From: a virus
Virus record (IMG/VR): IMGVR_UViG_3300046170_000524
DNA length: 64,000 nt
Strand: one strand, 5' to 3'
Shown: positions 4,961-33,773 of the stretch, piece after piece
Position numbering within the stretch: the first letter of the stretch is position 1
Layout: each line of letters opens with the position of its first letter
Translations under genes and position numbers: made by a program
Notes under the pieces: generated by a model
What the model saw: only the letters and a program-made list of their open reading frames with translations
Database searches by the model: none
What the model was told of the DNA's origin: nothing

Positions 4961-4969
4961 GTGTAACTA
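4961..4969 (+). promoter_or_regulatory. GTGTA-class putative phage late promoter
   Basis: GTGTAACTA; 10 nt between GTGTA and ATG 4976. Confidence 0.6.
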
Positions 4970-9118: not shown

Positions 9119-10046
9119 TATTTGTAAGATTTGCTCTCTTGAGTTTGAGAGCGAAAAGAAACTTCATATGCACTTGAGGTCTCACAAGATTACTTTGGCG
9201 GAATATTACTTAAAGTATTACCCCAGGTATAATTTATATTTACAATCTATAGGCAAAGAAGAGCTTCTCCCTTTTAAAAACAAAGAGCAATATTTTTCTA
9301 AAGATTTCTCCACAAGAGAACAACTTTTAAAATGGTGTGAAAGTGAGTCTGCAGAAATTGTTAAGCCATATATATTAAGATTGCTAAAAAAAAGAATAGA
9401 GGGGAAAGATTTAAACTTCGCTCCCTCTCATCTAGAGTTGGCGGTGAATGAAATGCCAACTATCGAGCTTTATCAAAAACATTTTGGGTCATATTCATCC
9501 GCTTGCAATGAAGTTGGAGCGAAGCCAATGTTTGGATCTAAATTACCAAATGAGTGGACTAAGGATGTAGACCCTACGATAAAAATATTTATTGATACAA
9601 GAGAACAGCAGCCTTTGACTTTTCCTAATTCGGAATTATTAAAATTGGATTTCGGAGATTACGCAGTTGGAGGAAAACATTATGACTATACTTATGTAGA
9701 CCGCAAAGGCGAGCAAGATTTTAAGTCAACATTAAGCAAAAATAACCTGGAAAGATTTAAATATGAGTTGGAGAGAACCAAGAATTTAGATTCATATTTA
9801 TTTATTGTAACGGAAGGTAGTATATCTAGTATAGAAAAAAATAATCGTTGGGCGCCTCATATGTCTAACATGAAATACATTTACCATAACATGAGAGTAT
9901 TAGCTCATGAATTCGCAGGTAGCTGCCAATTTATTTTCACTGGGAGCAGAGAAGAATCAGAAAGAATTATTCCAAAGATATTAACGTTAGGAAAAAAGCT
10001 TTGGGGCGTTGATTTGCAGTATTACATAGATAATAATTTAATATAA
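9108..10046 (+). CDS. C2H2 zinc finger + ERCC4-domain endonuclease
   Basis: CKICSLEFESEKKLHMHLRSH; IFIDTREQQP...LDFGDYAV...VDRKGEQDF corresponds to the ERCC4 DxRE/GDY/ERK motifs. Confidence 0.8.
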   Translation: MSSNICKICSLEFESEKKLHMHLRSHKITLAEYYLKYYPRYNLYLQSIGKEELLPFKNKEQYFSKDFSTREQLLKWCESESAEIVKPYILRLLKKRIEGKDLNFAPSHLELAVNEMPTIELYQKHFGSYSSACNEVGAKPMFGSKLPNEWTKDVDPTIKIFIDTREQQPLTFPNSELLKLDFGDYAVGGKHYDYTYVDRKGEQDFKSTLSKNNLERFKYELERTKNLDSYLFIVTEGSISSIEKNNRWAPHMSNMKYIYHNMRVLAHEFAGSCQFIFTGSREESERIIPKILTLGKKLWGVDLQYYIDNNLI

Positions 10047-11917
10047 TGGCGTGGGAAACAGGAAATCAATTATCTAGAAATTCAGAAATGAGCTTCAACG
10101 AGCAACTTGAAGAAATTAAAGGTTTCATCGAAGAGAAGGAAGCTAAAATTTTATTGTATAAATTTCTTAGAGAAAATATCACATTTACCGCTGACTTAGT
10201 TAGCGGCGTTCAGCTATTCCCTTTTCAGCACATGGCGATTAAAGCTATGTTCAGCACAGATTACTTTATGGGAGTTTGGTCTCGAGGAATGAGTAAATCT
10301 TTTACTACTGCAATATACGCTTATCTAGATGCAATATTAAATCAAGGTGTTGAGATTGGTATATTATCTAAGTCTTTTCGTCAAGCAAAAATGATCTTTA
10401 AAAAAATTGAAGACATTGCTTCAAAACCTGGTGCGACTTATCTAGCGCAATGCATATCTCATAAATCAAAAAGCAATGACGAATGGTTGCTTGAAATAGG
10501 TAGCAGTAGAATACGCGCATTACCTCTCGGAGATGGAGAAAAGTTACGGGGATTTCGTTTTCACAGAATTATTATTGATGAGTTTGCTTTGATGCCCGAA
10601 AGGATTTATAATGAGGTCATCATACCTTTTCTTAGTGTTGTTGAGAATCCAACTCAGCGAGAAGAGCTTTACAATCTAGAGACAAATTTAATCCAAAAAG
10701 GAGAAATGTCTGAAGACGATAGGCATGTTTGGAGAAACAATAAATTAATTGCACTAAGCTCTGCAAGTTATAAATTCGAATACATGTATAAAGCTTACGA
10801 GCAATTCGAAGAGTTAATAATGGCTGGCAGCACAAAACAAAGTGACGCTCATAGAGTAATAATGCAGTTTAGTTATGATTGCGCCCCAAAACAGTTGTAC
10901 GATCAAAATCTTCTAGATCAAGCTAAATCCACAATGAGTCAAAGCCAGTTCGATCGGGAGTTTGGTTCTATATTCACAGATGATAGTAGTGGGTATTTTA
11001 AAACCTCTAAAATGGCATCTTGCACACTTAAAGATGGGGAAAACCCTCATATAGAAGTTTGTGGAGAAGTTGGTGCAAAATATATATTGGCATTTGATCC
11101 AAGTTGGGCGGAGAGTGAGAGCAGTGACGACTTTGCGATGATGGTATTCAAATTAAATGATGATAAAAAAATTGGCACTGTAGTTCATAGCTATGCATTA
11201 TCTGGAACAAACTTAAAACAACATATATTTTATTTTTATTATTTGCTAACTCATTTTAATATTGTATCTATTGTAGGAGATTATAATGGAGGAGTTCAGT
11301 TTATAAATGCATGCAATGAAAGTTCATTATTTAAAAAGAATAAATTAAATATTGGATGTATGAATACAAACTTTGATGATATAGAACATTATCAACAAAA
11401 ATTAATAGAAGGAAAAAAGGAATACAATTTACAGGATAAGACGATTTGTTATCTGCGCAAACCTACAAGCCAATGGATTAGATTAGCAAATGAATTACTT
11501 CAAGCAAATTTTGATCACCATAGAATATATTTCGCGAGCAGGGCAATAGATGATGCATATAACGAACAAAGAAATAAAAAAATACCTATACAAGATATTA
11601 AATTCTTAAGAACTTCTCAAAGCTTAGAGAGGCAAACTAACGCTGCAAAAATGATTGATTTCGTAGAGCATCAATTTGACATGATGAACTTAATTAAAAC
11701 GCAATGCTCCCTTATTCAAATATCGACTTCTGCAGGAGGAACACAAACTTTCGATTTGCCATCGAGCTTAAAAAGACAAACAGGTCCAGAGAAAGCCAGA
11801 AAAGATTCTTATTCTGCATTAGTTCTTGGAAATTGGATGATTAAGCTTTATTATGATATGATGAATGTTAAGGCGGAAAATGTGAATTATACTTTTACTC
11901 CCATGTTTATAAACTAG
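10046..11917 (+). CDS. terL: Terminase large subunit
   Basis: Walker A-like SRGMSKS, IRALPLGDGEKLRGFRFHRIIIDE (Walker B), RNase H-like LAFDPS and the C-terminal KDSYSA motif. Confidence 0.9.
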   Translation: MAWETGNQLSRNSEMSFNEQLEEIKGFIEEKEAKILLYKFLRENITFTADLVSGVQLFPFQHMAIKAMFSTDYFMGVWSRGMSKSFTTAIYAYLDAILNQGVEIGILSKSFRQAKMIFKKIEDIASKPGATYLAQCISHKSKSNDEWLLEIGSSRIRALPLGDGEKLRGFRFHRIIIDEFALMPERIYNEVIIPFLSVVENPTQREELYNLETNLIQKGEMSEDDRHVWRNNKLIALSSASYKFEYMYKAYEQFEELIMAGSTKQSDAHRVIMQFSYDCAPKQLYDQNLLDQAKSTMSQSQFDREFGSIFTDDSSGYFKTSKMASCTLKDGENPHIEVCGEVGAKYILAFDPSWAESESSDDFAMMVFKLNDDKKIGTVVHSYALSGTNLKQHIFYFYYLLTHFNIVSIVGDYNGGVQFINACNESSLFKKNKLNIGCMNTNFDDIEHYQQKLIEGKKEYNLQDKTICYLRKPTSQWIRLANELLQANFDHHRIYFASRAIDDAYNEQRNKKIPIQDIKFLRTSQSLERQTNAAKMIDFVEHQFDMMNLIKTQCSLIQISTSAGGTQTFDLPSSLKRQTGPEKARKDSYSALVLGNWMIKLYYDMMNVKAENVNYTFTPMFIN

Positions 11918-11926
11918 GTGTACCTT
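11918..11926 (+). promoter_or_regulatory. GTGTA-class putative phage late promoter
   Basis: GTGTACCTT; 12 nt to ATG 11935 of the head operon. Confidence 0.6.
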
Positions 11927-11934
11927 TTACGTAA

Positions 11935-13542
11935 ATGTCTAAAAAATATAAATATACAACAACTTTTGATAGTGTAGTTTTTGCTTCTAGTGATATTGAA
12001 GAATCTAATATAAGCAAAGCTTCACTTGAGTCACTTAGGCCCCTAATTCCAAAAGACATTAATTTAGATAGAAACATTGATCTTCTTGGTGTTGCGTTTA
12101 ATGCGGCTGTAGTTAATAAATTTAATAAAAATGGAGATGGTATTGATAGCGAGGCGGCTGTAGCCATTAAGGATTATTTCGTTCATAAGCCAACAAACAT
12201 TGAGCACGATAGAGACAAAATAGTTGGACATATTGTTTCTGCAGGTTTTTCAAGATATGATGACTCATCCAAACTTATGTCAGAAGAGGAGGCTTTGATT
12301 GAAGATAATGCGTACAATATTGCTCTCGCTGCTGTGATTTATAAAACAGCAAGTAAAGAGTTTGCAGATCTAGTTGTAAACTCAACCGATGAAGAGAGTG
12401 ATTATCACGCAACCGTTTCAGCTAGTTGGGAAGTTGGATTTAATGAATATGTAATTTCTGTTGGCGGAGACGATCTATATGGATCTACTATTATATCAGA
12501 CCCTCAAGAAATTAAAGCTTACTCTCCTTATTTAAAATCTTTAGGCGGAAAAGGAGTATTGAAAGACGGCAGAAAGGTTAATCGATTAATTATTGGAGAC
12601 ATTTACCCTCTTGGCATTGGATTCACATCTAACCCTGCTGCAGACGTAAAAGGTCTTATTGCAGAAAAGGGTGATGCACCTGAAGTTAAGCAAAACAGAA
12701 ATGAACCAATTAATCAATTAATCACAAAAACCGAAAAAACTTCCCATTCCGCAGAAGAAAATGTACTAAACAAAGAAACCAATCATAATACCATTATGGA
12801 CAAAGATACAATCATAAATGAATTCCGAGCAGCTTTAGACGAAAAGCTTGGCAACCAAGATTTCTCTGAAGAAAGCGTCGCCAGCATCTCCAAGGTGTTT
12901 ATCGAGGCTATCCGCGAGAAAGGCGAACAGTATGTCGCTGATCTTGAAAAAGCTAAAGCTGAAAAAGAAGAAGCTGTTCAGGCTCAAAATTCTCTTCAAG
13001 AGAAAATGGGAGAAGTAGAGCAGCAATTACAATCCACTCAAGAAAAACTTGCAGTCCTCGAAGAAGAGAATTCTGCTCGTGAAGCAGAAGTTCGTTTTAA
13101 TTCTCGCATGGAGGCGCTAAACGAAATTTATGAACTTGACGAAGACGATTCTAAAATCGTAGCTTCTGAGCTTGCAAGCTTAGACGAAACTGAAGAAAGT
13201 TTTGCCGGGTATCAAGAAAAATTAGCTAAAGTTTGGAAACATAAAAATAAAGAATTTATCGCCGCTGAACAAAAAGCGTTTGAAAATCGCGTGACTCAAG
13301 AAGTTGAAAAACGTTTATCTCAAACCGCGGAAGCTTCAGATAATAGCGAAAAAGTTGAGGTTTCAGAAGCGTCAGAAACTGAAGAGGAAGTAGAAGAAAG
13401 TGATGAAGTCGCTGAAGCTCTTGATTCTCTTGAGGTTGAAGAAGCAGCTGTTATCAATAACAACGAAAGTTCTTCAGAGGGAGATTCTCTTCGCGATCGT
13501 TTCGCAAAGACCTTTAAAGAATCTGTTAAAATTTCATATTAA
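11935..13542 (+). CDS. Prohead protease fused to scaffold-like coiled coil
   Basis: AVVNKFNKNGDG, PTNIEHDRDKIVGH and VSASWEV protease-like motifs; Glu-rich coiled-coil C-terminal half; directly upstream of the capsid genes. Confidence 0.75.
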   Translation: MSKKYKYTTTFDSVVFASSDIEESNISKASLESLRPLIPKDINLDRNIDLLGVAFNAAVVNKFNKNGDGIDSEAAVAIKDYFVHKPTNIEHDRDKIVGHIVSAGFSRYDDSSKLMSEEEALIEDNAYNIALAAVIYKTASKEFADLVVNSTDEESDYHATVSASWEVGFNEYVISVGGDDLYGSTIISDPQEIKAYSPYLKSLGGKGVLKDGRKVNRLIIGDIYPLGIGFTSNPAADVKGLIAEKGDAPEVKQNRNEPINQLITKTEKTSHSAEENVLNKETNHNTIMDKDTIINEFRAALDEKLGNQDFSEESVASISKVFIEAIREKGEQYVADLEKAKAEKEEAVQAQNSLQEKMGEVEQQLQSTQEKLAVLEEENSAREAEVRFNSRMEALNEIYELDEDDSKIVASELASLDETEESFAGYQEKLAKVWKHKNKEFIAAEQKAFENRVTQEVEKRLSQTAEASDNSEKVEVSEASETEEEVEESDEVAEALDSLEVEEAAVINNNESSSEGDSLRDRFAKTFKESVKISY

Positions 13543-13561
13543 TAATATAGGAAAATAAATT

Positions 13562-14182
13562 ATGGCAAAAAGAATACTACCATACCGAGACTACAGTGAG
13601 CATGATGTCCTTAATATGTTCGCACTTGAAATTGGCAGCGGAGACGATTTATCTACATTCGTCTCTAATGGCGGTGGAAAGTTCGACGCAGGCGTTGTTG
13701 TTTCTGTAAGCGCGGGAGCTCTACCTGGTGAGGTTTCCGAATTGCGTGCATCAACTCCAGATAATCTTCGTGATTATCTTGGCGCTAGTTTTAGTGGTGC
13801 GCATATTGGATTCAACGGATACCCCGCTAACGGTATGACCGTTGCTCCTGCTGCAGCTGGCAGTCGTGGACTTGGAATCACTCTTCGTGAAACCTTGGCT
13901 TTCGACGAGAATGGAGAAAAATTACTCTATTACAAACAAAAACTTGATGAAGCCCAAGCAGTGCTTCCCGGTCAAACAGTTCCTGTTTTGACTCGAGGAT
14001 TAGTTCTTCTTGCTGCTAGTGCAATTAGTGGAACTCCATCTGTTGGAGACGATCTTGAGGTTAAATCTGGCGGTAAATTAGGAACACAAGCTTCTGGTTC
14101 AGTAGTAGGTTCTGTAATCGCTATTGGAGAAGAAAGCAATGATTCATCTGCAAAGAAATATCTCTGCAAAGTCAGCTTCTAA
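13562..14182 (+). CDS. Capsid decoration/cement protein (probable)
   Basis: Gly/Ala-rich protein between protease and MCP, with highly biased (high-expression) codon use. Confidence 0.55.
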   Translation: MAKRILPYRDYSEHDVLNMFALEIGSGDDLSTFVSNGGGKFDAGVVVSVSAGALPGEVSELRASTPDNLRDYLGASFSGAHIGFNGYPANGMTVAPAAAGSRGLGITLRETLAFDENGEKLLYYKQKLDEAQAVLPGQTVPVLTRGLVLLAASAISGTPSVGDDLEVKSGGKLGTQASGSVVGSVIAIGEESNDSSAKKYLCKVSF

Positions 14183-23901: not shown

Positions 23902-26337
23902 ATGGATATAAAAGTAAAAAAACGAAACGGACGTCTTCAAGACTTTAATGTCGAGAAAATTAATGCTAATGTTGAACGCGCATGTAACGATATCGCTGAT
24001 GTATCAGTAAGTGAAATCGTGCTAGATGCTCAACTTCAATTATACGACAAGATCACAACCAGGGAAATTGATACAGCTCTTATATTAAGTGCTCGAGAAA
24101 AGATCGAAAAGGAACCTAACTATAGTTACGCCGCAGGTAGATTACTACTAAATACAGTATATAAAGAAGTTTTTAAAGAAGGTGTTGATAGTGACGCGTT
24201 CAGGCTTCAATACAGGAAGAGCTTTATTCAAGGAATAAAAAAGCTCGTTAAGGGTGGTAAGCTTAATACTGGAATGTTGGAATATGATTTAGGGAAGCTT
24301 TCTGAAGCTATTCGTATTCGTAGAGATAACTCTTTTAAATATTTGGGTATACAAATTTTAACAGATAGGTATTTTATTAGAGAAGACGATAAAATCATGG
24401 AGGCCCCTCAGTCTTTTTGGATGAGAGTCGCAATGGGCTTAGCGCTAAACGAAGAAAATAAAGAGGATTGGGCTATTAAATATTATGATATGTTTAGTCA
24501 ATTTTTATACACCTCTTCAACTCCTACTCTTTTTAATAGTGGGACTGTCAGATCTCAATTAAGCTCATGTTATTTAAACACTTTTGATGACAGTATTGAT
24601 GGTATTTTTGACGGTGCTTGGCAAGAGGCTCGTAAGAGTAAATATGCTGGAGGCCTAGGTCTTGATGTAACCCCTTTTAGGTCAACAGGTTCATATATTA
24701 AGGGAACTAACGGTGTTTCTAGCGGGCTTGTTCCGTGGCTTAAGATATACAATGATCTTCTTGTCGCAGTGAATCAAGGAGGCAAGCGTCCAGGAGCTGG
24801 ATGCGCTTACTTAGAGCCTTGGCATTTAGATTTTGAAGACTTTTTAAACTTAAGGAGAAACACTGGGGATGACAGGTTGAGGTGTCATGATATGAACACT
24901 GCTTCTTGGATTCCTGATGAATTTATGCGTAGAGTTCAGAATGAAGATGTTTGGTACTTTTTTGATCCAAAAGAATCTGGCCTGCACGATTTGTTTGGGG
25001 CGGAGTTCGATAAAAAGTACAATGAACTATGTAATCAGGCAGAAGAAGGCTTAATTAAAAATTACAGAATAACCCCTGCAAAAGAGTTGTGGAAAAAAAA
25101 TGCTCAAGGTTTTATTTGAAACTTCTCACCCATGGAATACTTTCAAAGATCCGTGCAATATTAGATATACAAATCAACATGAAGGTATTGTTCATAGTAG
25201 TAATTTATGTACAGAAATCACTCTTCACACTAAATCTTCTAAATACGAAAAGGGAGAAAAGACTAATATTGGAGAGACTGCAGTATGTAATCTTGGGTCA
25301 GTCAACCTTCTTAATCATTTAGATGAAAACAATACCTTGGATTATGATAAATTAAAAAATACGATACATACTGCTATTAGAGCTTTAGATAGCGTTGTAG
25401 ATCTTAATTTTTATCCAACTAAGGAAGCGGAGGCTAGCAATTTAAGGCATCGCCCTATTGGTTTAGGCATGATGGCATTGCATGATATTTGTCATAGAAT
25501 GAATATTAATATTGATAGTGATGAGGCTGTAGAGTTCAATGATAAATTATTTGAATTTTATTCTTATCACGCAATATATGCTAGTTCTCTATTAGCTAAA
25601 GAAAAAGGTAGATACGAAACTTTTGATGGGTCTCTGTGGAGCAAAAATATTTTACCTATTGACTCTAATAATAGATTAATGAATTACCGTACAAAATCCA
25701 AGGAGTCTGAAAGAGGTGAGGGGGAAAGCATGAAAGACGAATGGCTTGAATTAAGGGCTCATATATCTGAATTTGGTATGCGTAATAGTAATGTTATGGC
25801 TATTGCGCCAACAGCTACCATCGGCTATATTAATGGAGTAGAGCAAAGTATAGAACCTAATTTTTCTGTGTTGTTTGTTTATGAAAACAAAAGCGGCAAT
25901 TTCTTTATTACAAATGAACACTTTATTAATGACATGAAAAATGCTGGTTTATGGAATAGCGAAATCGCTAAGCTCGTAAAAAGCGTTGATGGGGACCTAT
26001 CTTTACTAAATGGAGATATTCCATCTGAATTAAAAGAGAAATATAAAACAGCGTTTGATCGCGATATGTTTAAACTAATTGAATGTAATGCGGCTCGCCA
26101 AAAATGGATAGACCAAGCGGTAAGCTTTAATTTATACAATAAATCTACTTCCTTAAAGTATTTAAATGATGTTTATATGTCTTGCTGGGAAGCTGGATTA
26201 AAACAACTTATTATCTTCGTAATCGCGCTGCATCCAAAGTAGAAAAAGCTCATAATGATGAAAGTAAAAAAGAAGAACCATCCGCTTGCAGTATAGAAGC
26301 GATGAAGAATGGTGGTACTTGTGAAAGCTGTCAATAG
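23902..26337 (+). CDS. nrdA: Ribonucleotide reductase class I alpha subunit with ATP cone (two apparent indels)
   Basis: ATP cone (VKKRNG), TPTLFN, LSSCY, SNLCTEI, VCNLGS, APTAT. A +1 shift at the A8 run 25093-25100 and a -1 shift at ~26190 restore LKTTYYLRNR...CESCQ* ending at 26337. Confidence 0.92.
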
Positions 26338-26649: not shown

Positions 26650-27663
26650 ATGAATGATAAAACAGGAGAATTACTAACAAAAAATATCGCGGGGGTAAAT
26701 AGAATTTTACCTCATAAACATAAATATGCGTGGGATTTATTTTTAAAGAGTTGTGCCAATAATTGGATGCCTACTGAAATTAGTATGCAAAACGACATTA
26801 AACAATGGAAAAACGATGAAATTACAGAAGACGAAAAATTACTCGTTAAACGCTGCCTTGGATTCTTTGCGGGATCTGAGTCTTTGGTTGGTAATAACCT
26901 GCTGCTTTCGGCTTTTAGATTTATTACTGATGCTGAATGCCGTCAGTATATACTTCGTCAGGCTTTTGAAGAAAGCCTTCACAATCTTACAGTAGTATAC
27001 GTTTGTGATAGTTTAGATTTGGATATAGAAGAAGTTTTTGCCGCTTACGAAACAATACCAAGCATTAAAGCAAAAGATGACTTTTTGATGACTATCACTA
27101 ATGATATTAGTCGCCAAGACTTTAACGCTCACACTACAGAAGGCAAGCAAGAAATTTTACGTAATTTTTTAACCTATTGGATTGTTTGTGAAGGAACTTT
27201 CTTTTTCAGCGGGTTTGCAATGCTATTGGCTTTAGGTCGCCAAAATAAACTTCAAGGAATTTCTGACCAAATTAAATACACTCTTCGCGATGAAAGTTCT
27301 CATATTGCATTTGGCACGTATTTAATTAATACTTTGATCGAGCAAAATCCCGAAATATGGACAGAAGAAATACAGCAAGAATTTGTTGAACATATGAAAA
27401 AAGCTGTTGAGCTTGAAATAGCTTATGCGCACGATGTTCTTCCTACGGGAATACTTGGACTAAATGCAGAAATGTTTGTTGAATATATGCACTATATTGG
27501 AAATCGTAGATTAGAGGGTATTGGTCTAGAGTATCGCTTCCCTAGCGACAAAAACCCTTTCCCTTGGCTTAGTGAGGTTGTTGATGTCCAGGCAATGGGG
27601 AATTTCTTCGAAAGAAGAGTTAGGGAGTATCAACAGAGCGGCTCTTTAGAAGACGATTTCTAA
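26650..27663 (+). CDS. nrdB: Ribonucleotide reductase beta subunit, class Ic-like (no radical Tyr)
   Basis: NNWMPTE, FFAGSESLVGNN, EESLHNLTV, EGTFF, RDESSH, NFFE; Val at the H+4 tyrosine position. Confidence 0.92.
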   Translation: MNDKTGELLTKNIAGVNRILPHKHKYAWDLFLKSCANNWMPTEISMQNDIKQWKNDEITEDEKLLVKRCLGFFAGSESLVGNNLLLSAFRFITDAECRQYILRQAFEESLHNLTVVYVCDSLDLDIEEVFAAYETIPSIKAKDDFLMTITNDISRQDFNAHTTEGKQEILRNFLTYWIVCEGTFFFSGFAMLLALGRQNKLQGISDQIKYTLRDESSHIAFGTYLINTLIEQNPEIWTEEIQQEFVEHMKKAVELEIAYAHDVLPTGILGLNAEMFVEYMHYIGNRRLEGIGLEYRFPSDKNPFPWLSEVVDVQAMGNFFERRVREYQQSGSLEDDF

Positions 27664-28728
27664 TAAAGAAGATTCGACCGTTACTCCTGGGCCAAAAGTT
27701 GCTGAAAAAATATTTTTTTCATTGTTCGAACAATTTTCTAATACTTCTTTTAATACAAATAAAATAGTAGGGCTACTCATATTTCCGTATTGTTTGAGGA
27801 TATTTCTAGAATGTTTTAAATCTGCATCTGGTTTGAATTTTTGAAACGAATCAAGTATCGCTCTTCCTCCAGGATGAATTGCCCAGCAGTCTATAGAGCT
27901 TTCTATTTCTGGCATATACTTAAGAGCTTGATTTATATTTTCGGATATAAAATTTGGAAGATCTGGGTTTAAGGTTAAATCGAAGCCATTATCTCCAACC
28001 TTCCACGCTAAATTTTTTCCATCATCATTTATTACATGAGAATTAAATGATTTCATTTCTAAAAATGGTTGTTCTTTTGTTAATTTTTTATTAGAAGAAA
28101 CTATGCAGGCCGCACAACCATCAGAAAAAATAGAGTTTCCTATAATATAGTTTACATCATCTGTTAGTTTCATGTGCAGAGTACACATCTCAATGCAGAC
28201 AACTAAAACCTTAGCATCTTTATTGCTCTTGCAAAATTCTGATGCGGTTTTTAAGGCTGGAAATGCAGCTTGACATCCCATGAAACCAATATTTACCCTT
28301 TCTATATTTTTATTTAAATTAAATTCATTTATGATCTCTATGTCTAAGCCTGGATTATAGAAACCCGTACATGAAACAGTTATAATGTGGGTAATTTCTT
28401 GTAGGTTTATTTTTTTTGAAATTTTTGATATTGCATTAAAAGCAAGCGGGCCACTGTTTTTTTTATATATATTATTTCTTTCTGAAGTAGAAGGATTATG
28501 CAAAGTATTGTTTTCATTTCTATGGAAAAGTTCTGTTTCAGTAGTTGAAAACTTTAAGTCTTTTACTACAGAGTATCTATTTTTAATGCCAGATTTTTTG
28601 ATTGCTTGTTTAATTAAAAGCTTATACCTTCTATCATCTTGAAAGTGAGTGATAAAATTGTAAATTTCTTCTTGGCTGCTTTTGCATTGAGGATTTGAGG
28701 TCTCTATGCAGTTTATATATGTTCCCAT
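27646..28728 (-). CDS. Type III polyketide synthase (chalcone/stilbene synthase superfamily)
   Basis: VSCTG, GFMGCQAAF (catalytic Cys), IFSDG, WAIHPGG (His), YGNMSS (Asn), FGPG. Confidence 0.92.
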   Translation of the reverse strand: MGTYINCIETSNPQCKSSQEEIYNFITHFQDDRRYKLLIKQAIKKSGIKNRYSVVKDLKFSTTETELFHRNENNTLHNPSTSERNNIYKKNSGPLAFNAISKISKKINLQEITHIITVSCTGFYNPGLDIEIINEFNLNKNIERVNIGFMGCQAAFPALKTASEFCKSNKDAKVLVVCIEMCTLHMKLTDDVNYIIGNSIFSDGCAACIVSSNKKLTKEQPFLEMKSFNSHVINDDGKNLAWKVGDNGFDLTLNPDLPNFISENINQALKYMPEIESSIDCWAIHPGGRAILDSFQKFKPDADLKHSRNILKQYGNMSSPTILFVLKEVLENCSNNEKNIFSATFGPGVTVESSLLEIVF

Positions 28729-28765: not shown

Positions 28766-30070
28766 TTAGCCCAAAATATCTAATAAGGGCTCACCTTTAT
28801 GGGCTATAGTAAAAGGCCTGCCTGATGGAGAATATTGGTAGTCATTTAGTGGAAGCCCTAAAGTATGCGCAATCGTTGCATTTAAGTCTTCTGGCTTGAT
28901 TGGCTTACCTTTTGTGGGAGTACGGCCTGTTTTGTCAGTTTCCCCATAAGTCATTCCACCTTTAACTCCTCCCCCCGCCAAAAAAGCGGTAAAACAATAA
29001 GGCCAGTGATCTCTTCCGTCTCTTCCATTGATATTTGGAGTTCTTCCAAATTCAGAAGTTAAAACCACTAAGGTGTCAGAAAGCATACCTCTTCGGTTTA
29101 AATCAATTAACAGGCCGCTTAAAGCTTGATCGATGTCAGTACAATTTGCTGCAACTCTATCAAAGTTATTATCATGCGTATCCCATCCACCTCTTGTTAC
29201 TTCAACGTATCTTACGCCATGCTCTACGAGCCTTCTTGCTAATAAGCATCCTTTTGCAAAATTAGTTTGACCATAAAGATTGCTTGTGGACTCAGGCTCT
29301 TTTGTAATGTCAAAAGCATTTAAGTCATTACTATTCATTAATTTAATTGCGTCTTTGTATAGAGTCAGAGTAAGCTCTTACTTGTTTTCTGCGGGAACTG
29401 GGTGGAAAAATTCTCATTTAGATGCCTCTGCGATAGATATTCTGCTTTGAAAATGCTCGTGATCTAGAGTATGATGCCATTTTGCTATTGGCTAGTCCTG
29501 CGGCTTGGATTATTGATTGGTAAGGCGCCGTATTTAGATTCTAGAAAGCCTGCGCCGCCTCCGCCTCCCCCTATTTTAACATTGGACTGGGTATGGTTCT
29601 GTTGATTGCACCTCCAAGTTTGGACACCCAGCTACCAAATGTTGGGTGCACAATTGTGCCTCTTTTCAGGTAGCTGGTATGCATTAAGATAACTCGCTTG
29701 CTCATGAGCTCCCTGGCTTGTGTTCATTGTTTTAATTATTGCTCCATGATGCATAAGCTCGTGCGGTCTTTGGTAGGTTTTCTGATAAGAATCACTCCGT
29801 CCGCGCTTGTTGGAATAGATTTTGTCGGCCCCTGAATATCTGGCGCGTCTGGCTTCGGCCCAAATGTATCAAGGTGAGACATGGCTCCTCCCATATTTAA
29901 ATATATTACGTGCCTTGCTGTTGGTACTCTGGCTGCCTGGCTCTAAGCGCGCTAACACTGTTATGTATATACGCTCCTGCCATTGGCATAAGACCCACCC
30001 CAAAACATGCTTTTGCAGCATGAGCTATAAATTCTCTTCTTCCTAATTCGTCTATTGTATTAAAGTTCAT
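28766..30070 (-). CDS. DUF1501-family Tat-exported protein (multiple apparent indels in the 5' half)
   Basis: GRREFIA twin-Arg signal; stitched frames give HVIYLNMGGAMSHLDTF, QGAHEQA, HPTFGSW. Intact C-terminus GCLLARRLVEHGVRYV, GGWDTH, SEFGRTP, GRDHW, GGGVKGG. Confidence 0.85.
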
Positions 30071-30077
30071 AATAGAC

Positions 30078-30086
30078 TTATTACAC
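30078..30086 (-). promoter_or_regulatory. GTGTA-class putative phage late promoter
   Basis: Minus-strand GTGTAATAA; 11 nt to ATG 30070. Confidence 0.6.
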
Positions 30087-30125
30087 AATTTTGAGAAAAG
30101 TCAACAGAAAGTGGTATGATATATT

Positions 30126-30575
30126 GTGCGGTTTTTATTGCTTATATTCATTATACCCAGCATTTTATGCGCTAGATTACAAAGAGAAGATTATTTAGAT
30201 AATTGTGATTGGTGCAAAAATCAAGCTAAGTCTACTCAGCCATTAGATATCGGCGAATGGAGTATGAGATGTAAGCAAAAACCGAAACCAATATGGTTTA
30301 ATTATAGAAATATAGGCAGAGCATATGGAACTTATAAAGAAAAAACTTCTATGTGTTGGATTTATTCTGAAAAATTAGGTTGGATATACAACACCCCTCA
30401 ATATAAAGATTATATTTATACTCACAAACTTGGATGGATCTACGTAAAAGATGGCAAGGTTTATGTCTTCAAAAAGAAAAAGTGGGATTATTTTACAAAT
30501 ATAAATTCGTGTGTGTTTATTAATGTCCAGATTATTTCTTTGTATGCCTCTTTCTTGTCTTTTAATGACGATTAG
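30126..30575 (+). CDS. Exported protein with repeated LGWIY motifs
   Basis: Signal-like N-terminus; WIYSEKLGWIY and YIYTHKLGWIYV repeats; TGg-TATGAT 5 nt before the GTG. The 3' end is uncertain because it overlaps the convergent gene. Confidence 0.6.
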   Translation: MRFLLLIFIIPSILCARLQREDYLDNCDWCKNQAKSTQPLDIGEWSMRCKQKPKPIWFNYRNIGRAYGTYKEKTSMCWIYSEKLGWIYNTPQYKDYIYTHKLGWIYVKDGKVYVFKKKKWDYFTNINSCVFINVQIISLYASFLSFNDD

Positions 30576-32763
30576 TAAATATTGTTAATTTCTTTTGAGG
30601 AGGGCTTTCTGTTTAATATATATCTATATCCTGCTTGTAATTTTATCATCTAATGACTTTTGCGACTGCACTGCTTTTATAATTTCAAAGTTTTTATTTT
30701 TTAATAACCTTGTTTCTACAAAACCGTTAAGCAAGATTGAGTACCTGGGTCGCAGAGGCGCTTTTATTTGCGTTTTCGATCTGCTCCCTATCTGAACCAC
30801 CAAACTCACGAATAAGGTGCCCTACGGGCGCAGGAGAAGGTAGTTCTGAGGCTCTTACGGAATTACGATCTTTTACAAAGTTTTGCTTGTAATCGTCTTT
30901 CTTGGTTTGTTGCTGGGATTTAAATTTATCAACACAAGATTCGCAGCAAAATGCAACCGTCTCTCCGTTTTCATTAATAGCTAATAAAGTTGGATCAATA
31001 GCTCTGCCAGGTTTAATTGGGCAATCTGTATTTATTGGTTCTGTGAATTTTGGTTTATTTGTTGTTTTTGGCCTTTCGGTTTTATTTATTTTGGCCATAA
31101 GATCTTGAAATAATTCTTCACCAGTCATTGCCGAAAAGTTTTGAAACTCTTCGTAACCTTTTGTGTTTTGCTGAAGTTTTCTAGAATCTATATCGTTAAA
31201 CGTTAAATTTACTAATGAATCCCAGACTTGTTCGCCACTCATTCTTTCAAGCATTGGCCCTTGATAGAAATATGGAATAGCGTTGTGAGATTGTTTTTCA
31301 GAATTTGGTCCTGCGATAATCCATTTTACATCTACAGGCATAGACTGATCTTTATTATCTTTTGGGATAACATCTCTTATTACAGATTGACGCTGAAAAG
31401 TTTTTGTGTTATATAATACCCTTAAAAACTCTTTTAAATCGTAATCTAAAGCTACCATAACTTTTTCCAAATGTAGCTGAAGTTTTGGATCTGTAGCTAA
31501 TGTATCATCAAACATGTTATCAATTGGCTCAATTAAAGCTAGTCCAAAAGCTTCTTTCCATAACCTATTTACAATAACAGCTGTAAATCTAGGATTCGAA
31601 TCTGTTGCAAGCCAATTTGCATATATTTCTCGAGACCCTGCTTGAGGAGCTTTTGTTTTTATGTCGATTTCTTTTCCAAAAATTGTTTTTCCAGATAACA
31701 TTTCGCTCGGCTTTGCGTTATCATATTGATAGTCATTTGGTAAATTAATTTTTCCTGAACCCAGGCTATCTAGACCTGTTTGAAGAATGTCTTGAATGCC
31801 CCTAGATTCATTTCTTAGCTGTCTAGATTTTTGCGGCTCACCTGCTTGCTCTAGCCTTCTTTGTTCTGTATTAACCAATCTATTAAATTGACCTAAATTA
31901 TCAACACCTCTTCTTCTTAGATTTGTCGAACCGCTTGTGAACGCAGCCATTTCGTAGAATTGTTTTTGTGTCCAGCGATCAAATGGATGATCATGGCACT
32001 GGGCGCATTCAAGACTAGTGCCAAGAAAGATGCGAACTGTATTGGCCATATTGTCGAGGGGCATGTTTACATCTCGCGCAAAGTAACTAACTCCTTCATT
32101 ACCTCTTTCCCATAAAGCTCCAGATGAAGAAAGCATTTCTCTTACCCAAACATCATATGGTCTATTATTTGATATAAATTCTTTTACATAATTTTTATAT
32201 GGTATACCTGATACTCTATTATTTAATCTATCTTTTATTCTTAATATATCAGCCCAGAAGTTGAACCAATGACTCACATACCCTTCGCTGCCTAATAGTT
32301 GATCTATTAATTTTGATCTTTTGTTTTTGTCTTTACTATTTAAAAAGGTGTCTACTTCCGTTAACGACGGAGTTCTTCCGATAACCTTTAAATAAGATCT
32401 GCGCAAAAATGTAGCATCATCAACTTCTTTGTTTGGTTTGAGGTTATATGATCGTAATTTTGTTTCAATTAAACTATCAATATATCTTGCATGGGTATTT
32501 AAATCTTTATCTGATAGTGGTTTTTTAAATTTCGGCAAAGCTTCGTGGCTTGGCGGGAAGTTGTTTTTGATATAAGCTTGATTATCTTCTGTAAGAGAAT
32601 CTATTGCTATTCTAAATAATTGCAGGTCACTTGCTCTTTTTATTAAAGCGTGAGTTGCATTTGCCTCAAGAATATCTCCTTTTAAATCTTTTCCGTTATT
32701 AAAATAAAGAGTATCAGCGAAACAGTAAATTGATGATAATAATAGTAAAAGTAGTTTTTTCAT
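30488..32763 (-). CDS. DUF1549/DUF1553 (PSD1-type) secreted protein with SHD1-like N-terminus, CxxCH and YHS-like insert (3' indels)
   Basis: Signal peptide; DATFLRRSYL..IGRTP, HWFNFWADILR, FLGTSLECAQCHDHPFD, NPRFTAVIVNRLW, YDLKEFLRVL. Shifted frames continue to EIIWTLINTHEFIFVK* at 30488. Confidence 0.88.
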
Positions 32764-32770
32764 AATAAAA

Positions 32771-32779
32771 TTATTACAC
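32771..32779 (-). promoter_or_regulatory. GTGTA-class putative phage late promoter
   Basis: Minus-strand GTGTAATAA; 11 nt to ATG 32763; TTGACA also lies 16 nt upstream of the TA. Confidence 0.6.
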
Positions 32780-32818
32780 TATTTGATTAATTTGTCAAGA
32801 AGTTTTTTAATCGCGCCA

Positions 32819-32849
32819 ACAAAAAAGCCGCCCATTTCTGAGCGGCTTT
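32819..32849 (-). terminator. Rho-independent terminator
   Basis: Minus strand GCCGCTCA-GAAA-TGGGCGGC-TTTTTT. Confidence 0.85.
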
Positions 32850-32872: not shown

Positions 32873-33112
32873 TTAATCTTTATCGCTTTTTTGCTTAAAA
32901 AGCGCAACGATAAGCAAAAGAGTGATAATTCCCGCTAAGGAAGCCCCTTCTCCTACGAATCCTGTGACAACATCCTGAAGGTTGCCAATAACATTAATGG
33001 GTGCTCCTGCGCCAAATACGACCTGGGCGACAACGAGCAATCCGATAATAGAGAGCAGGACACTGGTAACTCCTCCTGCGTAATTTTTGATTGTATCTAT
33101 TGTATTTTTCAT
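32873..33112 (-). CDS. Small inner-membrane protein (2 TM)
   Basis: MKNTIDTIKNYAGGVTSVLLSIIGLLVVAQVVFG...LAGIITLLLIVALF; start placed at ATG 33112. Confidence 0.7.
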   Translation of the reverse strand: MKNTIDTIKNYAGGVTSVLLSIIGLLVVAQVVFGAGAPINVIGNLQDVVTGFVGEGASLAGIITLLLIVALFKQKSDKD

Positions 33113-33119
33113 AATTAAA

Positions 33120-33773
33120 TTAGAAAGAAAAGGTGAATGATGCGGAAAGTACGTCTTCTCCGTCAATTGAGTCTGAGTCTACTCGATCGTATCCAGCAGA
33201 AGCTTGAACTGAATCTGTCAAGGTTTTTGATAAAGATAATCCGAGAGAATAATAATCATTATCTTCAATGCCGTATCTATCGGAATTACCTAAAGCGCCA
33301 GCCAATGTCAAGTCTGCGAAGTTCAGGTCAAAAGTATGAGAAGCTCCACCTTCAAATACATAATTATTATCGCTAGTATCTCTAAGAATTAAAAAATACG
33401 GGGATAAGGCATAATTAAGACTTAATTCAAGGGCTGCATCAAGTTGACTGCCTCCATCGATGATTTCTTCATGCTCAAGTCCGACATAAACGTTTAATAA
33501 GTCTCCAATTGCGCTGGAAACGCCGCCAGAGAAAATATAAACACTCTTTCCATCAGAGAGCTCGTCAAAAGATGAAACTGAGCCTTCTACGTTCAGACTT
33601 TCGACTTCTGCGCCATAAGATACTGAAGCCGAAATACTTTCTTCGGTCAAAAGCGAACCTTTACTGAATGTATCGGTGCCATAACCCAAGGAAACGGCGC
33701 CTGATCCAGCATGGACTGCGTTAATAAAAAAAGCTGCTACAAGAGCAGTAACTGTTATTAGTTTGGTTTTCAT
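33120..33773 (-). CDS. Outer-membrane beta-barrel protein
   Basis: Sec signal peptide, alternating amphipathic strands and C-terminal SASFTFSF (BAM-type terminal Phe). Confidence 0.75.
   Translation of the reverse strand: MKTKLITVTALVAAFFINAVHAGSGAVSLGYGTDTFSKGSLLTEESISASVSYGAEVESLNVEGSVSSFDELSDGKSVYIFSGGVSSAIGDLLNVYVGLEHEEIIDGGSQLDAALELSLNYALSPYFLILRDTSDNNYVFEGGASHTFDLNFADLTLAGALGNSDRYGIEDNDYYSLGLSLSKTLTDSVQASAGYDRVDSDSIDGEDVLSASFTFSF

Follow-up and report, generated by a model that had tools for sequence, protein, structure and literature searches.

A host-type gene pair in a phage genome

We analysed a stretch of viral DNA of 64,000 nucleotides (IMG/VR record IMGVR_UViG_3300046170_000524; the whole stretch is hereafter the window) that carries, side by side on its minus strand, a PSCyt2(DUF1549)-PSD1(DUF1553) gene, called here the partner gene, and a DUF1501 gene. 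A type III polyketide synthase (PKS) gene follows in the same orientation, its start lying 37 nt past the DUF1501 stop codon. This layout of two co-oriented genes directly upstream of the PKS is the one given in the preliminary description of this DNA, whose reading of them as a signature pair of Planctomycetes and Verrucomicrobia inside a phage was borne out: the window encodes a large terminase, a tail fibre, a DnaB helicase, a DnaE-type polymerase and a ClpB/ClpC-like ATPase, and hallmark phage genes flank the pair on both sides. The evidence presented below identifies the pair as a host-derived auxiliary gene module of a phage family with genomes of roughly 120-215 kb. The genes and signals at the locus are as follows (ORF, open reading frame; aa, amino acids).

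30488..32763, minus strand: PSCyt2(DUF1549)-PSD1(DUF1553) gene; open frame here 30727-32763, 678 aa; full frame 756 aa, to about 30488
28766..30070, minus strand: DUF1501 gene; 430 aa in relatives; the 3' part, 28766-29377, is one frame
27646..28728, minus strand: type III PKS with chalcone-synthase N and C domains; a neighbour, outside the module
30126..30575, plus strand: small opposite-strand ORF within a present/absent insert of 430 bp (30055-30487); of no family, and absent from the host operon
32824..32849, minus strand: intrinsic-terminator-like hairpin, 11 bp stem and T tail, closing the upstream porin/two-transmembrane unit
32770..32798, minus strand: promoter-like site of the partner gene, TTGACA-17-AATAAT plus TG, 11/12 match; includes GTGTAATAAT
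30071..30104, minus strand: second promoter-like site, before DUF1501; TTGACT, spacer, TGTAATAA[G]

Around the pair lies an accessory island encoding Hsp20, an HNH endonuclease, a GDP-mannose dehydratase, a glycosyltransferase, a NUDIX protein, a porin-like outer membrane protein (OMP) and the large and small subunits of ribonucleotide reductase (RNR). The G+C content of the window is 0.33-0.38, and no near-identical DNA was found among deposited phage genomes. The porin-like OMP (217 aa) and a 97-aa membrane protein adjoin the pair (32873-33773, minus strand) and form a unit with its own terminator and a perfect TTGACA-17-TATAAT promoter.

Conservation of the pair in related phages

A search of IMG/VR with each protein returned matches at 37 and 32 loci on more than 40 contigs (individual loci or contigs carry L-numbers), with protein identity down to 39%. 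At most viral loci the partner gene lay directly upstream of an intact DUF1501 gene, and the pair occupied the same syntenic slot in relatives. The earlier proposals that the virus keeps these genes and that they are linked in relatives thus both held, linkage applying to most of the related contigs. Three related records of 194-214 kb were rated 100% complete by CheckV. Two complete genomes (203 and 194 kb) each contained both genes in single copy and no homologue of the third gene of the host operon described below; a protein search with that host gene likewise found no homologue in the phage records. A scan of four phage records for PSCyt1 gave no match, the control being silent in the same scan.

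The median pairwise ratio of nonsynonymous to synonymous substitution rates (dN/dS) in the window's clade was 0.053 for the partner and 0.050 for DUF1501, with dS of at least 1.3, near saturation, in most pairs. Such ratios mark strong purifying selection and, at near-saturated synonymous sites, indicate that the genes have long served a function in phages. DUF1501 was retained in all lineages and the partner in most of them. DUF1501 occurs without the partner in L055, L057 and L061, which fall inside the window's clade, and in clade V3, one member of which is a complete genome of 214 kb. Genes of host type, phage flanks, presence in complete genomes and dN/dS of about 0.05, the marks of auxiliary metabolic genes, were therefore all found for the pair.

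Other observations concern these relatives. The porin-like OMP gene adjoins DUF1501 also in partner-less phages (L055) and in clade V3 (L062, L093). L093 (JAYQMT010000004.1, 210,818 bp, G+C 0.35), deposited with a Cellvibrionales metagenome-assembled genome (MAG) label, has in common with the window DUF1501, the porin-like OMP, the small membrane protein and tail-fibre-like genes. Most likely it represents the whole genome of a related phage, binned by mistake into a gammaproteobacterial MAG. Stretches resembling a tRNA T-arm and acceptor 3' end, GGTTCGA(A/C)TCC...CCACCA, lie directly upstream of DUF1501 in L062, L064 and L093 (about 9250-9313 or 9930-9991), and a tRNA-3'-end-like stretch lies upstream of the partner gene in L012 (about 9930-9985). 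ARAGORN called no tRNA gene at any of these stretches, which may be att-site remnants marking the insertion of cargo.

Host origin and repeated capture

The closest cellular copies of both genes were found on 23 contigs from MAGs and single amplified genomes of marine Opitutia (Opitutales, Puniceicoccaceae, 'Ca. Seribacter'). Identity to these copies was 72-80% for DUF1501 and 47-58% for the partner. On the host contigs, whose G+C content is 0.38-0.52, only the pair resembles the window. The host operon consists of three genes: PSCyt2-PSD1 (about 841 aa, two TRASH-like repeats), DUF1501, and a gene for a protein of 570-700 aa with three PSCyt1 cytochrome c domains. A divergent multihaem-cytochrome/TPR gene precedes it, and SufS and a convergent sulfatase gene follow. 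This arrangement and its flanks were conserved in all Opitutales loci with enough flank. The neighbouring aminotransferase had been considered as PhnW, which would have provided a link to phosphonates; this was rejected on its identification as SufS.

In Opitutales the partner orthologue itself lacks PSCyt1, which is encoded by a separate gene, and the missing PSCyt1 of the phage protein therefore does not exclude it from the module. The host genomes (2.5-3.7 Mb) each encode 18-30 DUF1501 paralogues, among which the captured one is one of the most atypical, scoring 356 bits against 480-530 for most. We conclude that the phage module corresponds to the first two genes of one atypical host operon, streamlined in phages.

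Trees were built for DUF1501 by a quick search and for the partner with FastTree. In both, the window's clade (V1) was monophyletic with support of 96-99, V4 was basal, and V2 (L024, L025, L028) was nested in a host clade beside a Puniceicoccaceae sequence with support of 100; V3 (DUF1501 only) was separate. These placements need at least three exchanges, with the two genes moving together, and indicate that phages acquired the module more than once from host copies. By its nearest homologues, the pair also provides a host assignment for these ocean phages of about 200 kb, whose hosts are likely to be marine Opitutales (Verrucomicrobiota).

Features of the two proteins

Pfam searches confirmed the family assignments of the preliminary description, for DUF1501 in pieces. 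The partner ORF (30727-32763, minus strand) matched PSCyt2/DUF1549 at 4e-45 and PSD1/DUF1553 at 3e-19; these two matches in one protein scored 154.7 bits (PF07583, cut-off 29.8) and 69.8 bits (PF07587, cut-off 28.5), compared with 155.6 and 90.7 bits in the intact partner of L013, where the two genes of the pair occupy 10001-12271 and 12687-13979. DUF1501 matched at 3e-71 (PF07394, 241 bits) in 28766-29377 and at 1e-06 (28.3 bits) in the 5' fragment 29736-29942, both on the minus strand. The order PSCyt2-PSD1 then DUF1501 is the same in viral and cellular loci. Within the two proteins we located the following features, all on the minus strand.

32716-32763: partner signal peptide, Sec-type, MKKLLLLLLSSIYCFA, by motif inspection
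32554-32715: partner SHD1-like domain, by structural match
31933-32481: partner PSCyt2 domain
31987-32007: partner CAQCHDH, residues 253-259, within PSCyt2
From 31632 downwards: partner PSD1 domain
30934-31023: partner TRASH/YHS-like Cys insert, CPIKPGR...FCCESC, residues 581-610
30029-30040: twin-arginine translocation (Tat) motif GRREFI, DUF1501 N-terminus

The Sec signal, SHD1-like domain and CAQCHDH attributed earlier to the partner, and the twin-arginine signal attributed to DUF1501, were thus all present. The N-terminal domain of the partner (model residues 14-69) aligned with the SHD1 structure 2hbp in VIA-align at Z 7.2, with a root-mean-square deviation (rmsd) of 2.0 Å over 55 of 66 residues, and in Foldseek at a probability of 1.00 and a target-normalised TM score of 0.65; Pfam gave no match for this domain. 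In the PSCyt2 domain, C253, C256, H257 and H259 were invariant among 34 partner sequences. The same alignment contained no invariant Met or distant His that could serve as sixth haem ligand. The invariant C-x2-C-H-x-H would fit haem c and, equally well, a Cys2His2 metal site. PSCyt1 (PF07635) had no match in the phage partner protein.

The Cys insert had been described as YHS-like. A Cys-rich insert is indeed there, with a conserved C-x(n)-C-C-x2-C pattern; it is no addition by the phage and was inherited from the host, which has two copies. Phages of clade V1 have one TRASH-like repeat and those of V2 and V4 none. Its Pfam scores all fell below the cut-offs, PF24273 giving 16.7 bits in the phage and 21.2-24.7 bits in hosts (cut-off 27) and YHS 17.9 bits (cut-off 30.3). 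A structural model of the partner, with a predicted local distance difference test (pLDDT) score of 81.2, is mostly helical. Searched whole, the 756-aa model gave no Foldseek match at E <= 0.001 and, in VIA-align, nothing at Z >= 8, only the small SHD1 domain being found; for a long model searched whole this is no evidence of a new fold. A sequence search of the PDB with the partner returned only noise.

The N-terminal DELGRREFI of DUF1501 is conserved by motif inspection, both arginines (R11, R12) being kept in at least 90% of the 40 sequences. Residues T68, T87, H121, D293, H295 and H351 were invariant and D350 was present in at least 90% of sequences. When the AlphaFold2 (AF2) model (pLDDT 84.8) was compared with representative structures, the nearest were ENPP6 (Z 20.4, rmsd 3.0 Å over 244 residues), ENPP7 (20.0), PafA (19.8) and Xac NPP (19.2), with ENPP4 within 19.2-20.4. 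Sulfatases ranked lower at Z 17-18.7, followed by the periplasmic domains of LtaS, LtaP, EptA and PbgA/YejM at 15.7-16.6; Foldseek with the same model returned sulfatases at TM about 0.4. Identity to the ENPP, PafA and sulfatase neighbours was only 10-17%, and a sequence search of the PDB found nothing. DUF1501 models, then, as an alkaline-phosphatase-superfamily fold nearest ENPP/PafA and next sulfatases, and its invariant Thr, Asp and His residues would fit a metal-dependent esterase or transferase.

DUF1501 was also considered as a formylglycine (type I) sulfatase. The missing Cys/Ser-x-Pro-x-Arg motif (39 of 40 DUF1501 sequences lack [CS]xPxR) and the Pfam result for the window protein, which returned DUF1501 alone and neither sulfatase (PF00884) nor Phosphodiest, speak against this. 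A profile search matched only the C-terminal metal-binding strand that DUF1501 shares with sulfatases; hhalign against a host sulfatase recovered the same 34 columns, and the nucleophile could not be aligned.

Expression signals

The sequence GTGTAATAA precedes both genes, and GTGTA stands 11 nt ahead of each ATG. Of the 29 GTGTA[AC] occurrences in the window, 11 lie in sense orientation within 45 nt upstream of a start codon, where 0.5 would be expected (for example at 4961, 5718, 11918, 16344 and 47532). The motif precedes these 11 start codons, which include those of structural genes and the Clp ATPase, by 10-17 nt and sometimes 34 nt. Almost every phage version of the cargo has it upstream, and the host orthologues all lack it. 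GTGTA[AC] is a genuine phage-wide upstream motif, and it may act as a phage-specific promoter or translation signal.

Both genes have near-consensus sigma70-like boxes that stop 6 nt short of the ATG; for the partner gene this implies a transcript with little or no leader. The terminator-like hairpin at 32824-32849 indicates that the pair opens a new transcription unit. TTGAC also occurs 35 nt before the start codon of five other window genes, including dnaB; for DUF1501 the distance is 34 nt, with a spurious base intervening. The G at 30077 in the second promoter-like site is a spurious insertion, relatives having TGTAATAAT. The TTGAC -35 layout, seen in six genes, suggests leaderless transcripts. 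Host orthologues share it, with TTGCC or TTGCA near -35 and an A/T-rich box near -10, which points to a host-like, near-leaderless design. The preliminary description had placed both genes under phage-type promoters; this stands for the GTGTA motif, common to other phage genes and not found in the host, and fails for the sigma70-like layout, which is that of the host. A strict TTGAC-N15-19-TGTAATAAT pattern occurred only once, and GTGTAATAAT with one mismatch was not enriched (7 found, 7.8 expected).

A separate promoter for DUF1501 exists only where the haplotype includes the 430-bp intergenic insert, which was present in L006-9, L013 and L018-20 and absent from L001-5, L010-12 and L014-17. 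Relatives without it have a spacer of about 22 nt between the genes and no separate DUF1501 promoter, so the genes must be co-transcribed there, as in the host. The small ORF of the insert has 128 aa in relatives (L013 12247-12633, minus strand); it contains GWIY-type repeats, belongs to no Pfam family, shows 55-90% identity across eight phage contigs and has a distant 173-aa homologue elsewhere in L016, L017 and L029. It looks like a mobile small gene that brings the second promoter with it.

Proposed role during infection

The two proteins could act in the host as follows. Host RNA polymerase would transcribe the pair from the sigma70-like, near-leaderless promoters. The partner would be exported unfolded via Sec, its invariant CxxCHxH then taking up haem or metal, and DUF1501 would be exported folded, with its metal centre, via Tat. 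In the periplasm DUF1501 would be the catalytic, rate-limiting subunit, a metalloenzyme of the alkaline phosphatase superfamily whose substrate is a phosphate or sulfate ester, with the helical PSCyt2-PSD1 protein as its dedicated partner and the remaining cytochrome supplied by the host. The phage would in this way boost a nutrient- or energy-yielding periplasmic step of its host during infection. As to the chemistry, phosphoester hydrolysis is our first, tentative choice; a redox-coupled reaction comes second and is somewhat doubtful, a reaction of another kind is unlikely, and sulfoester hydrolysis more unlikely still.

In a second, rather unlikely scenario the partner is a true c-type haem protein linking DUF1501 to the host PSCyt1 and multihaem-TPR proteins, and the phage raises energy yield, not nutrient supply. 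Its CxxCH is invariant, Sec export of such a protein fits periplasmic haem attachment, and in all Opitutales loci with enough flank the pair precedes the three-PSCyt1 gene and faces the multihaem cytochrome-TPR gene; electron transport was also proposed by Kamneva et al. 2012 (PMC3542564). Yet the phages leave behind the only clear-cut cytochrome gene, and L055, L057, L061 and V3 drop the CxxCH partner as well. The lack of an invariant Met or distant His as sixth ligand, with a C-x2-C-H-x-H that could be a Cys2His2 metal site, further weakens the case for haem. We know of no alkaline-phosphatase-superfamily enzyme that is a redox enzyme.

The structural neighbours of DUF1501 raise a third scenario, envelope remodelling or superinfection exclusion, in which it would act as an LtaS/EptA-type transferase on a glycolipid or receptor and block adsorption of related phages. 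The LtaS, LtaP, EptA and PbgA/YejM domains are among those neighbours, and the pair adjoins the phage porin-like OMP and small membrane protein with their own consensus promoter. These domains rank under ENPP/PafA and the sulfatases, however, DUF1501 has no membrane anchor, and the orthologous operon, along with its cytochrome partners, is a conserved part of the host chromosome, which points to metabolism and not to anti-phage masking. We regard this scenario as improbable.

Origin of the frameshifts in the window

In the window DUF1501 is not one ORF but about eight frame fragments, and the partner has 678 aa in place of 756, its last 78 residues being lost; relatives have one 756-aa ORF and one 427-436-aa ORF. 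Compared with relatives, the window holds 17 extra bases between 29364 and 30735, all of them small insertions, with zero deletions and none in a homopolymer. Twelve inserted bases, in 10 events, fall in DUF1501 (29364-29938). The partner has single-base insertions at about 30735, 30637 and 30584 and, by pairwise alignment, one or two more at about 30559-30567.

We aligned the window three ways with two natural haplotypes, the L001 type and the L006/L013 type. From 33200 down to 30900 it followed the L001 type, with six isolated allele switches at 533 informative sites. There were 48 switches at 125 sites in 29350-30054 and 25 at 74 sites in 30488-30899, a rate of about one every 2.6 informative sites. 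Each insertion lay where the haplotypes differ at adjacent positions, and the window held both alleles in tandem: in CCC-AG-TC-CAA, for example, AG is the L006 allele and TC the L001 allele. Tandem alleles and frequent switching indicate a consensus of mixed reads, not recombination or gene decay. The frameshifts are thus very probably a collapsed-haplotype consensus artefact of two co-occurring phage haplotypes, and the earlier suspicion that the indels are errors very probably holds. At this locus the window may be a chimera of two strains; its gene order, PKS included, occurs naturally in L013.

The gene for the class I RNR large subunit, nrdA (23902-26337, plus strand), is also split in the window, into ORFs 23902-25119 and 25100-26242 and a tail, and is a single 805-811-aa ORF in relatives. 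Its breaks coincide with homopolymer-length differences, T8 versus T7 at about 25093 and T4 versus T5 at about 26199 (minus-strand reading), which are probably long-read errors and fit an error-prone long-read assembly.

Taken at face value, the deposited sequence, with about 12 breaks in the DUF1501 frame and a truncated partner, would mean that the genes are really decaying, as cargo useless to this strain. This is very improbable: all 17 insertions sit at adjacent haplotype differences and hold both alleles, the rapid allele flips are confined to 1.4 kb, homopolymer errors elsewhere in the window mark an error-prone assembly, and the relatives are all intact with dN/dS of about 0.05. The case carries a lesson of method, namely that dense frameshifts in long-read metagenome contigs can reflect haplotype merging, the sign of which is alleles in tandem.

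The polyketide synthase neighbour

Among the related phage contigs examined, the PKS gene was present only in the window and L013 (14017-15099). Its best NCBIfam match, below cut-off, was DpgA-like. In L001-5, L006, L018 and L019 nrdB directly follows DUF1501, and other carriers have nrdB or other genes there. The PKS gene is a separate, recent strain-level gain that lies in the accessory island but does not belong to the module, and the earlier suggestion that the pair acts with the PKS product found no support in co-occurrence, L013 being the one relative with both. That the pair processes or exports a polyketide, as adjacency and co-orientation in the window and L013 might suggest, can hardly be right, given that no other locus carrying the pair has a PKS gene, that the PKS has no signal peptide while the pair is exported, and that the host operons have no PKS.

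Weighing the evidence

Taken jointly, we regard it as fairly probable that the pair is a host-derived phage module, that its frameshifts are artefactual, and that DUF1501 is a catalytic periplasmic enzyme with a dedicated partner. Several points weigh against this view. Hosts were assigned by the homology of the cargo genes only. Sequence searches of the PDB found no relative of DUF1501 or of the PSCyt2/PSD1 partner, and the Z scores of ENPP/PafA and sulfatases differ by only 1-3 units. Electron transfer is favoured over plain hydrolysis by the third gene of the host operon, with its three PSCyt1 domains, and by the divergent multihaem-TPR gene. Finally, 28766-29349 mixes alleles (86 sites, 30 switches) in the absence of a frameshift, which points to a contribution from a third, natural haplotype in that part.

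One orthologue group was taken up independently, shortened and strictly conserved by several phage lineages, which indicates that some process in infected cells is limited by its activity; phages can do without the TRASH repeats and the cytochrome gene. We put forward with considerable doubt the further idea that phages repeatedly captured the TRASH-bearing paralogue for a rate-limiting periplasmic reaction that limits ocean phage yield. That reaction could free phosphate from some dissolved organic ester that is abundant, or it could be an oxidation that depends on metal or haem and feeds into the host cytochromes. If this were true, phages that keep DUF1501 alone, or with a shortened partner, would show which parts make up the catalytic core and which can be spared, and would open a first way into the biochemistry of a family that takes up 1-2% of the genome in many planctomycetes and verrucomicrobia. 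The phage pair is a compact, single-copy handle for heterologous expression.

Comparison with known systems

DUF1501 together with PSCyt1, PSCyt2 and PSD1 was described as a 'conserved genetic module' of Planctomycetes, Verrucomicrobia and Lentisphaerae, with no function assigned (Kamneva et al. 2012, PMC3542564), and was also noted, again with no function assigned, by He et al. 2017 (PMC5615132). The PSCyt and PSD domains come from Studholme et al. 2004, as cited in PMC3542564. Few gene families of Planctomycetes and Verrucomicrobia are as expanded and as poorly understood as these pairs, first described in 2004 and again in 2012. The preliminary description had spoken of an undescribed system, which overstated the case in view of the 2012 module; its function and its presence in phages were not in the literature searched, where we found no paper with DUF1501, DUF1549 or DUF1553 in phages (coverage was not exhaustive). 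The phage pair belongs to a known module that is still a functional orphan and that now emerges as an auxiliary gene set recurring among phages.

With the cellular module the phage pair shares the Pfam families, the order and orientation of PSCyt2-PSD1 and DUF1501, a signal peptide on the first gene and a twin-arginine motif on the second, the invariant CxxCH, and membership of one marine Opitutales orthologue group at the identities given above. It differs in being phage-encoded, in lacking carbohydrate-binding domains and PSCyt1 (present in many, not all, architectures of the cellular module), and in its separation from the host third gene. The phage partner is shorter, 756 against about 841 aa, with one TRASH-like repeat against two. 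Upstream motifs are phage-specific, and some haplotypes are split by the opposite-strand ORF and second promoter.

In its modelled fold, with conserved Asp/His pairs and Thr, DUF1501 resembles the NPP/PafA phosphatases and formylglycine sulfatases, and PhoD and PhoX phosphatases are Tat-exported, in keeping with its Tat motif. It differs from the NPP/PafA enzymes and sulfatases in its low identity (10-17%), in the absence of Cys/Ser-x-Pro-x-Arg and in an obligatory partner gene that those enzymes lack.

Marine cyanophages carry nutrient-acquisition auxiliary genes of the phoA/pstS type; for Verrucomicrobia, none of this kind was found in the literature searched. The pair resembles the cyanophage genes in being host-derived, exported or periplasmic, under purifying selection and repeatedly acquired, and in lying in an accessory island among RNR, NUDIX, GDP-mannose dehydratase and Hsp20 genes. 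It differs from them as a two-protein module of orphan function with Verrucomicrobia as hosts.

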